Assembly (NCBI GenBank): GCA_040901985.1
Contig: JBBDYC010000019.1
Location: 111,770 to 175,769, forward strand
Reading direction: 5' to 3'
DNA length: 64,000 nt
From: Gemmatimonadaceae bacterium
GTDB taxonomy: Bacteria; Gemmatimonadota; Gemmatimonadetes; Gemmatimonadales; Gemmatimonadaceae
Shown: positions 49,349 through 54,057 of the stretch, in pieces
Layout: the number at the start of each line of letters is the position of its first letter
How positions within the stretch are numbered: position 1 is the first letter of the stretch
Program-made: the position numbers and the translations under genes
The notes under the pieces: model-generated
Seen by the model: only the letters and a program-made list of their open reading frames with translations
Told to the model about the DNA's origin: nothing
Database searches by the model: none

Positions 49349-50203
49349 TCACGGTTGGAGTCCAAGGCGGCGGGCGGTCTGCTCGGCGGCGATGTAGCCA
49401 AAGCTCGCCGCCGGCCCGAGCGCGAGTACCTCGCGCAGCTTCAGTTCCGCGGCGGCGCCGTGCCCGCGCGCCAGGTACCAGTGCGCCACGCCGTTCCCCA
49501 CCGTCTGTCGCTCGAGAGCCGTGGCGTCGTCGGCGAGGAGTGCCGAGTCGGGAACCGTTCCCTTCATCCACAGCAGCAGGCGGTGGTACGAATGGTTCTC
49601 GAGGATGTCCCAGTCGGCCTGAATCGGTGCGAGGGCCGCGTACACCGCGTCCCACTGGTGCAGCTGGGCGAGGGAGAGCACCCACCAATAGGTCGCGGCG
49701 ACCCGATGGTCGAGGTTGGGCGCGAGCTTGGCGTCCTCGTCCCACGCCACCACCGCCTGCGGGAAGTCGCCGGTGACGAAGTAGGCGAGCGCGAGGTGGT
49801 AGCGGATGTTGGAATGGAGCGTGCTCGTCGGGATCCCGCGCGCGTTGGGCTGGCCGTCGGGCTCGACCTCGTCTGGGCGGCCGGTCACCAGCGCGCGCGC
49901 GCGGGTCAGGTCGGCGATCGCCGCCGGAAAGTCCCGGAGCGAGAGGTAGCGGTGGCCGCGATGGCGAAGGAGGCGCGGCTCGTTCGGGTGGAGCCGCAGC
50001 CCCTCGGTGTAGATCGCGACCGCGTCGTCGAACGCCCCGGTGTAGCCGACGCGCCGTCCGTACCAGATGATCGAATCGACGTTCTCGGGGTGCCGCTCCC
50101 AGGCCGCGCGCGCAGTGGCGAGGGCGTCGGGGGGCTGGGCCGGCACTGCACCGGGCACGGTCAGCGCCAGGAGCACCACGGATGCGACGAGGGCACGGGT
50201 CAC
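49349..50203 (-). CDS. Exported TPR-repeat protein
   Basis: Signal peptide; TPR-like AVAIYTEGLRLHP, AAIADLTRA, YHLALAYFVTGDF. Confidence 0.78.
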   Translation of the reverse strand: MTRALVASVVLLALTVPGAVPAQPPDALATARAAWERHPENVDSIIWYGRRVGYTGAFDDAVAIYTEGLRLHPNEPRLLRHRGHRYLSLRDFPAAIADLTRARALVTGRPDEVEPDGQPNARGIPTSTLHSNIRYHLALAYFVTGDFPQAVVAWDEDAKLAPNLDHRVAATYWWVLSLAQLHQWDAVYAALAPIQADWDILENHSYHRLLLWMKGTVPDSALLADDATALERQTVGNGVAHWYLARGHGAAAELKLREVLALGPAASFGYIAAEQTARRLGLQP

Positions 50204-50246
50204 GCGAATCCCTCCGAATGAAGTCTCATTGCTCCCATCTCCCTGC

Positions 50247-51347
<1,101 letters not shown>

Positions 51348-51354
51348 CAGTTCT

Positions 51355-51394
51355 TCAGGTGTCAGGTATCAGGTATCAGGTGTCAGGTATCAGG
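51355..51394 (+). repeat. Tandem heptamer array (TCAGGTR)x5 + TCAGG
   Basis: tcaggtg tcaggta tcaggta tcaggtg tcaggta tcagg. Confidence 0.97.
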
Positions 51395-51463
51395 AACAAC
51401 GAAAGGTAGTGGGGGGTGGTGCAACGATGACGGTGCGGTGACGGCGTAGGCTGAGCTTGTGGC

Positions 51464-51916
51464 GTGTACCCGTTCCGTCGCCTCGCCGTCTGGGAGAAGG
51501 CGCATGCCCTGACGCTCCGGTGCTTCCAAGTCACCGAATCGGTCACTGGGAGGCGCTTTCCTGGCCTTGTCGCTCAGTTCCGACGTGCGGTGGCGAGCAT
51601 TCCCGCGAACATCGCGGAAGGGGCCGGACATTCGACCGATCCGCAATTCAATCGCTTTCTCGAGATCGCGATCGCGTCGTCGCTGGAAGCTGACTATCAC
51701 CTCCTGCTCGCGCGCGACCTCGGGGTCATCTCAGGCAAGGACTATGCGCAACTCGAGGCCCGCCTCTCCGAGGTACGTCAGATGCTGACAGGACTGCGGA
51801 AACGCGTGCTGGAGCGAATGCGACTAGCAGGCACGAGACGCGAAGGTGAACGACCAACGCGTGCAAGACGCACGGAAGCAGTAGGAGCGGAAAGAGCGGA
51901 GCGGAGCGAGATGTGA
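51464..51916 (+). CDS. Four helix bundle protein (23S rRNA IVP / bAvd-like family)
   Basis: FRRLAVWEKAH, GLVAQFRRAVASIPANIAEG, FNRFLEIAIASSLEADYHLLLARDLG. Confidence 0.93.
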   Translation: MYPFRRLAVWEKAHALTLRCFQVTESVTGRRFPGLVAQFRRAVASIPANIAEGAGHSTDPQFNRFLEIAIASSLEADYHLLLARDLGVISGKDYAQLEARLSEVRQMLTGLRKRVLERMRLAGTRREGERPTRARRTEAVGAERAERSEM

Positions 51917-51925
51917 AAGGTGAAA

Positions 51926-51952
51926 GGGGGGAGGCCGTACCGGCCTCCCCCC
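51926..51952 (-). terminator. 12-bp GC hairpin, terminator-like for the hppA transcript
   Basis: GGGGGGAGGCCG-TAC-CGGCCTCCCCCC, followed on the minus strand by TTTCACCTTTCAC. Confidence 0.65.
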
Positions 51953-51982
51953 TGACACCTGACACCTGACACCTGACACCTG
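51951..51982 (+). repeat. Tandem heptamer array (CCTGACA)x4 + CCTG, reverse complement of the 51355-51394 array
   Basis: Read directly. Confidence 0.97.
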
Positions 51983-51996
51983 CAGTTGTAGGAGTA

Positions 51997-54057
<2,061 letters not shown>

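Follow-up and report, generated by a model that had tools for sequence, protein, structure and literature searches.

A horizontally exchanged four-helix-bundle cassette as a possible master locus for genome-wide heptamer hairpins in Gemmatimonadaceae

Why should a gene of the 23S rRNA intervening-sequence protein family lie between two protein-coding genes, antisense to both and bracketed by inverted arrays of a seven-nucleotide unit? The question is raised by a stretch of 64,000 nucleotides (the window) from a Gemmatimonadaceae genome, here G000 (G-labels denote genomes and L-labels the loci extracted for comparison). A preliminary description of the window had recognised a bAvd/23S-IVP-like gene in antisense within the hppA-ychF run, and profile searches bear this out: the ORF (51464..51916, plus strand; 150 aa, GTG start, pI 10.7) reaches 98.4 bits against TIGR02436 (cut-off 24) and 101.2 bits against PF05635 (cut-off 33.8), and its minus-strand neighbours are ychF (50247..51347; TIGR00092, 470 bits) and hppA, which encodes a membrane pyrophosphatase (51997..54057; NF001961, 992 bits, and PF03030). 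A TPR-repeat protein gene (49349-50254) lies directly downstream of ychF and overlaps its stop by a few bases. The arrays are as had been described, with 5.7 units of TCAGGTR on the left (51355..51394, plus strand; pyrimidine-rich on the ychF strand), where at least five had been claimed, and 4.6 units of CCTGACA on the right (51951..51982, plus strand; purine-rich in the hppA 3' UTR), where at least four had been; the coordinates also confirm that 7 nt separate the left array from the ychF ATG and 14 nt the right array from the hppA stop. The two arms form a 35-nt inverted repeat with 91% complementarity, and in silico they pair on a read-through RNA into a 33-bp duplex of -67 kcal/mol, in line with the arm-to-arm stem that had been proposed. 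A short inner arm of other, older unit types (51908..51927, plus strand, an inverted repeat) extends the terminator hairpin described below, and the local fold of inner arm and terminator, at -47 kcal/mol, competes with the long-range pairing of the right array. The minus strand of the region folds at z = -6.3, which together with the genome-wide excess of AGG heptamers argues that this layout is not a chance product.

Between its arms, the cassette at this fixed site encloses an apparent host terminator and an apparent host promoter. A putative ychF -10 box, TACCTT (51403..51408, minus strand), is separated by 17 nt from a GATGAC/GATGCG-like motif (51426-51431) that is conserved, and a TAnnTT box with the same spacing to a GATGCG-like motif recurs on the ychF strand in 29 of 44 loci, three of the four gene-less alleles included; judged from the position of this box, the left array would constitute the ychF 5' UTR. 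The -10 position of the ORF itself, of leaderless type, is occupied by the off-consensus GAGCTT in the window (51453..51458, plus strand), and in 36 of 39 loci a YAnnnT box precedes the ORF start by 5-7 nt, compared with 7 of 858 when other offsets are considered. On the minus strand, a GC-rich hairpin followed by a T-rich tail (51926..51952) is the probable hppA terminator; a GC hairpin on the hppA strand is present in 36 of 39 loci, with tails of 2-7 T in 8 nt, the tail of the window's copy being weak (4 T). A scan of the window at consensus thresholds called neither promoters nor terminators, and the assignment of these boxes and of the hairpin as ychF promoter, leaderless ORF promoter and hppA terminator, which we infer, draws on cross-species conservation and not on consensus scoring. 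Given its off-consensus -10 box and GTG start, the window's ORF copy may be weakly expressed. Since the apparent host terminator and promoter are enclosed, the cassette need not be polar.

The protein consists of a conserved core of about 118 aa and a variable tail. A single-sequence model (pLDDT 76) contains four helices (5-28, 33-44, 60-85 and 91-118), the best fold matches of which are 2GSC and 2RLD, with E just above 0.001; Avd is a weak fold match only (E 0.65-0.73). The sole sequence match in the PDB is 2GSC (Xcc0516; E 2e-14), which has five chains, and by analogy the protein is probably a homopentamer; excerpts of PMC4990558 state a pentamer. The closest protein relatives are Gemmatimonas or Gemmatimonadaceae records. 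The family has a single copy in the genome and is present in 51 of 60 relatives and in 94 of 140 genomes of the phylum. With dN/dS at 0.04-0.23 in 13 of 15 pairs, and at 0.34-0.35 in the two pairs that involve the degenerate ORF of G020, the ORF is under purifying selection. In profile searches it matches, besides TIGR02436, PF05635 alone and no known catalytic domain, and searches of the genome, which is 99.97% complete by markers, for a catalytic partner recovered no match to a reverse transcriptase (PF00078), to a Y1 transposase (PF01797) or to PDDEXK_3.

Is this a resident gene or a visitor? Both, in a sense, because the site is kept and the allele is exchanged. The 48 genomes in which ychF was matched yielded 30 loci, 29 of them from relatives within the genus; 25 of these 29 hold the ORF at the same site and in the same orientation, and four lack it and retain the internal motifs. 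The preliminary description had called for a comparison with empty sites; gene-less alleles do exist, although these four look like deletions and not like clean empty sites. Simple vertical inheritance at the site, our initial reading, was overturned by the incongruence of the gene with its flanks: alleles have been replaced in place between species, each bringing its own unit in both arms. Across 38 loci, gene and host distances correlate at only 0.12. Between the host sisters G009 and L088, DNA identity is 84-97% in ychF and 90-97% in hppA versus 65-73% in the ORF, and between L086 and L092, also host sisters, it is 88-99% in the flanks versus 54-69% in the ORF, compared with 88-96% and 83-91%, respectively, in the vertical control pair G001/G034. 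Fourfold sites in five sister pairs differ by 0.54-0.66 in the gene and by 0.15-0.27 in the flanks, as opposed to 0.35 and 0.30 in one control and 0.04 and 0.10 in the other. In AU tests on clades that were named after the trees had been seen, five of seven host clades were rejected on the gene tree (the exceptions being G032+L076, p 0.17, and G000+G019, p 0.061) and four of four gene clades on the host tree. FastTree and quick trees were used, G018 being excluded from the gene trees for its long branch and G020 from the AU trees; the protein tree of ychF alone is poorly resolved, and the genomes are MAGs and kin. For the window's own copy the evidence of a swap is borderline (p 0.061 and 0.027): its protein shares 86% identity with that of L071 (YchF 88%) and about 67% with that of G019 (YchF 95%), which is suggestive, not decisive. 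The route of exchange would be ordinary homologous recombination through the conserved flanks. As a separate observation, the ORFs of G027 and L083 (loci L016 and L083) are 98-100% identical, with flanks at 92-100% and the adjacent end of ychF at 100%, possibly through recent transfer with co-conversion.

The heptamer units differ among genomes, and they follow the gene. Over 38 loci, with G012 excluded from the Mantel test for want of a right arm, arm distance is associated with gene distance given the host (partial rho 0.49; 0 of 2000 permutations as high) and not with host distance given the gene (partial rho 0.01), a pattern that could arise from linkage alone. The two arms covary as well, the right arm of the same locus ranking first in 17 of 38 cases. 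A test of other four-helix-bundle genes for flanking inverted 7-mer arrays had been proposed, and most of the 33 paralog loci read do show this layout, the gene being preceded by a purine arm and followed by the complementary one (the local profile missed 7 of 40 paralog loci, which were located by TIGR coordinates). A second subfamily keeps one shared unit in seven of seven genomes, often next to the same upstream gene (L032, L034, L036, L040, L043, L045 and L050). At one further site in G000, on C7 near 47955, a terminator and a short arm stand without an ORF; the same gap is filled by a gene in four relatives (L039, L041, L042 and L049), each with different arms.

How far do the arrays extend beyond the cassette? 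The genome contains 76 runs of three or more AGG-plus-4-nt units, compared with 3-7 at periods of 5, 8, 10 and 11 and with 112 at period 6, which is codon-driven. By the gene calls made in this analysis, 73 of the 76 runs are intergenic and occupy 51 of the 1160 gaps of 25 nt or more, so that the cassette arms are one of 51 such sites and about 50 carry arrays with no ORF. This speaks against the arms being a device specific to ychF, as had been suggested. Many of the sites are two-armed hairpins around a terminator or promoter and contain no gene. Purine arms lie closer to the left gene in 23 of 29 cases and pyrimidine arms closer to the right gene in 26 of 37, which places the purine strand in 3' UTRs and the pyrimidine strand in 5' UTRs, a polarity that matches excerpts on Xanthomonas/Nostoc (PMC4692102) and is compatible with those on Beggiatoaceae (PMC4679880). 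Arrays count 3-5 units in 65 of 73 cases, and ribosomal-like codon use is over-represented in the genes beside them (p 0.0006). Among the ORF-less sites, those of cassette type flank ribosomal-protein or elongation-factor genes in eight of nine cases, versus 2 of 41 for other types (Fisher 7e-7), an enrichment that is post hoc, being drawn from gene names and noticed after the list had been seen; the codon-use scores of the two classes are no different (p 0.13). Read by eye, the purine-rich strand suggests a unit skeleton R-G-N-N-R-N-N. Orphan arms do not as a rule end in a -10 box (4 of 73 did so by the criterion applied), and a loose RG-period-7 pattern was dropped after chance matches had swamped the signal. 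Several contigs of G000 end in heptamer arrays, and 16S rRNA motifs were not found in its assembly. In another family, heptamer arrays also stand just upstream of ychF (G045, C20, and G047, C2).

The unlinked sites offer a view of the unit away from the gene, and there, at fixed sites, arms that enclose no ORF tend to match the resident allele in their unit while the cores between them are conserved, a relation that is correlative. AGACNTG arrays number 137, 264, 30 and 96 matches in the four genomes with such cassette arms and 0-4 in 57 others; other units behave similarly but overlap more between genomes. All of 18 genomes have a hairpin or its remnant in the rpsJ-rplC gap, built of units that vary between them, and this hairpin ranks its own cassette among the top three in 14 of 19 cases (mean similarity 0.42 versus 0.13), with partial correlations of 0.29 for the gene (20 of 2000 permutations) and 0.14 for the host (252 of 2000). 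Five of the 19 rpsJ sites do not match their own cassette, one of which matches the arms of a paralog. The three sister genomes G061, G009 and G033 each have a different unit at one and the same orthologous gap, in every case that of the genome's own cassette, around a conserved terminator and promoter, and the gene-less sister G035 has decayed arms in the same place. Arms that change around a constant core indicate arm-wise replacement and not transposition of whole hairpins. Turnover is incomplete: when G061 was set against its sisters at five orthologous sites, two proved to be replaced, one unchanged, one different in length only and one a member of another repeat family, and relic arrays of the G061 type are present in G009 and G033, which blurs the direction of change. 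We count these relics against our preferred reading; they suggest that the ancestors were multi-type. A prediction made beforehand held in L088, where matches to its own unit number 23 versus 1 and those to the sister's type 7 versus 177, and it held in G009 and L086 too. It failed in the fourth genome, L092, whose swapped cassette is accompanied by 1 match to its own unit and 86 to the sister's type; thus, arms arrive with the cassette, and a genome-wide change is not automatic.

Several further features were seen at these gaps. Downstream of the heptamer hairpin and before rplC (L119-L137), the rpsJ-rplC gap holds a conserved element of the form GTCCTCCGG...GCCGCGACTAA with a variable stem, a candidate ribosomal leader RNA. 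The tuf-rpsJ gap (L118 and relatives) has a GC hairpin in 16 of 18 genomes, G000 and G012 being those without. Relative to G061, G009 has a 1.35-kb insertion exactly at an array (L194), with a duplicated gene end, some 30 nt long, at its borders. A second repeat family, with another period, is represented by the inverted arrays of 8-9-nt units that G061 (L162:19480-19730) and G009 (L190) both have at an orthologous gap.

What happens to the arrays when the gene is gone? They decay where it is lost or degenerate, again as a correlation. Array matches number 189 and 158 in G001 and G034 versus 2 and 0 in G013 and G024, 141 in G036 versus 62 in G015, 107 and 139 in G033 and G009 versus 26 in G035, and 193 in G025 versus 1 in G020 with its degenerate ORF, so that four of four sister contrasts point in one direction. 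At the locus itself, the arms left after loss or degeneration of the ORF have period scores of 2-9 in six loci versus a median of 15 in 38. With a pattern that detects only units containing AG or GA, and among kin that are not independent and MAGs in which repeats assemble badly, at least 10 matches per Mb are present in 70 of 94 phylum genomes with the family versus 5 of 46 without it (G189 excluded), in 66 of 90 versus 4 of 15 within the order, and in 14 of 26 versus 2 of 5, not significant, within family f1. Exceptions run both ways, as G015, G131, G154 and G107 retain arrays although they lack the gene, and 15 of the 94 gene-bearing genomes have fewer than 5 matches per Mb.

We therefore favour, with a probability of roughly 0.55, the view that the locus is a horizontally exchanged master cassette for genome-wide heptamer hairpins, similar to RAYT/REPIN systems and operating without a transposase. 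How might such a cassette act? The basic and probably pentameric protein is predicted to bind its cognate purine-rich strand; excerpts of bioRxiv 10.1101/2023.10.23.563531 describe that Avd inserts flipped bases between protomers. The bound protein would then bias the copying of units into other arrays, highly transcribed operons first, with binding, copying and the link to transcription all belonging to the conjectural part of the scheme. In its strongest form, which we consider possible rather than probable, TIGR02436 proteins would be non-catalytic rings that, with host enzymes, copy an allele-specific 7-mer into intergenic arrays already in place, in a transcription-coupled manner, starting with ribosomal operons.

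The preliminary description had offered another answer, namely that the cassette is an intervening sequence of the mRNA, which forms a loop and is removed from the hppA-ychF transcript, thereby hiding itself or regulating ychF. The strong in silico duplex, the weak terminator tail of the window's copy and the covariation of the two arms are what this would lead one to expect, and excerpts of PMC4990558 describe an intervening sequence in Coxiella with heptamer repeats at the RNase III site, where the enzyme excises it. Yet the RNase III domain PF14622, like PF00636, has no match in the genome, and PF00636 has none in 72 of 72 genomes of the class, single-contig ones included, compared with matches in five of six genomes of other classes of the phylum and in 8 of 14 controls (excerpts of PMC3071783 contain no statement that the class lacks RNase III). 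Another nuclease might act instead. Cutting without ligation would leave the two genes unjoined; moreover, the hppA terminator-like hairpin and the ychF -10 box are conserved within the cassette, so that nothing needs hiding, and the same arms enclose plain terminators or promoters at dozens of ORF-less sites. We consider excision from the mRNA highly improbable; what survives of the proposed mobile element is a transferable unit whose alleles are exchanged together with their arms. The missing RNase III may rather allow long mRNA hairpins to persist in this class. Nor are we much inclined to believe that there was no swapping at all and that convergence, old retained polymorphism or chimeric MAGs make a vertical gene look incongruent. 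The gene is short, all genomes are MAG-grade draws, GC3 differs among hosts and two of the seven AU tests are not significant; however, the genes on either side, in the same contig, agree with the host and the gene between them does not, fourfold sites of the five sister pairs differ far more in the gene than in its flanks, and retained polymorphism would still require recombination at the flanks. Such an account is very unlikely.

If alleles are indeed exchanged, do the arrays depend on the protein, and in what capacity? They might be a host regulon, with the pentamer an RNA-binding regulator of UTRs and with selection and slippage remodelling each site separately after a swap. TRAP works as a ring on a repeat, and arrays of mostly 3-5 units come near the valence of a pentamer. 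The strand placement close to ORF ends, the ribosomal-like codon use of the neighbours and the flipped-base binding of Avd would suit a regulator, and the same placement is reported in excerpts on Xanthomonas (PMC4692102) and Beggiatoaceae (PMC4679880). Against this, sisters separated by only 0.21 differences per fourfold site have units that disagree at about 3-4 of the 7 positions, one and the same two-variant unit recurs at about 19 loci, and 4 of 29 relatives do without the gene; the jumps between units and the 19 shared loci are hard to reconcile with independent point mutation at each site, and templated copying fits them better. On balance, a regulon of this kind appears unlikely. Alternatively, the arms alone may be selfish, spreading by slippage, hairpin correction and gene conversion, and the ORF a passenger with an unrelated job. 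Linkage predicts covariation in cis without any recognition, arrays do survive in some gene-less genomes, and the protein has no known catalytic domain. Selfish arms should not, however, decay after loss or degeneration of the ORF, nor should arrays have disappeared genome-wide in G020; in addition, the unit of each subfamily stays the same from host to host, and old and new units would seem too dissimilar for ordinary conversion. We regard this alternative as rather improbable.

The master-cassette reading has precedents in print, albeit as separate parts. Excerpts of bioRxiv 10.1101/2021.07.10.451892 describe RAYT/REPIN systems with a single-copy gene at a fixed intergenic site, a population of short inverted repeats outside genes whose spacers vary, and a repeat upkeep that depends on the gene; the cassette shares the first two, and its arrays tend towards the third, with the exceptions given above. 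It differs in having tandem heptamers as arms and no HUH/Y1 transposase, and in its incongruent gene tree, RAYT being congruent with the host according to the same excerpts; and since its arms change while the spacer stays, duplication of whole elements as in RAYT/REPIN offers no explanation. With the Coxiella S23p intervening sequence of 23S rRNA (PMC4990558, in excerpt), it has in common the protein family, terminal inverted repeats of tandem heptamers and a similar unit skeleton; unlike the latter, it resides between hppA and ychF and not in an rRNA gene, its ORF is antisense to the hosts with its own promoter box and a signature of purifying selection, and its host class shows no RNase III domain. 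The heptamers of Xanthomonas/Nostoc (PMC4692102) and Beggiatoaceae (PMC4679880), as far as excerpts of these papers go, are likewise intergenic 7-mers of about four units in inverted pairs, polarised with respect to starts and stops and found at ribosomal-protein operons; the excerpts propose G-quadruplexes or binding by S1, Csp or Csr and do not name a four-helix-bundle gene, whereas the units here are often not rich in G-runs and track a swappable gene. Avd of diversity-generating systems (DGR; bioRxiv 10.1101/2023.10.23.563531, in excerpt), Xcc0516 (2GSC) and the ORF have a related four-helix fold and a basic surface, but the reverse transcriptase of a DGR is absent from this genome. In the literature covered, mostly open-access papers, we found nothing that links TIGR02436/PF05635 to heptamer arrays outside rRNA. 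The locus contributes an in-place swap resolved to a single gene, a correlation in trans at sites whose cores are conserved, the contrasts between sisters with and without the gene, and a host class in which no RNase III domain was found.

Given that the design works without RNase III, it is separate from the role in rRNA intervening sequences behind the family's name. The function of a common protein family and the unexplained intergenic heptamer excess noted in excerpts of PMC4692102 and PMC4679880 thereby become one testable system, for which the locus supplies natural pairs of allele and unit in near-identical host backgrounds. If the idea of a repeat-writing ring were true, every horizontal exchange of this one 350-bp gene would give dozens of UTRs throughout the chromosome a new repeat type. 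Such a genetic element would be new in kind, and it would provide a cause both for the over-representation of heptamers in bacteria and for rRNA intervening sequences that bear an ORF.
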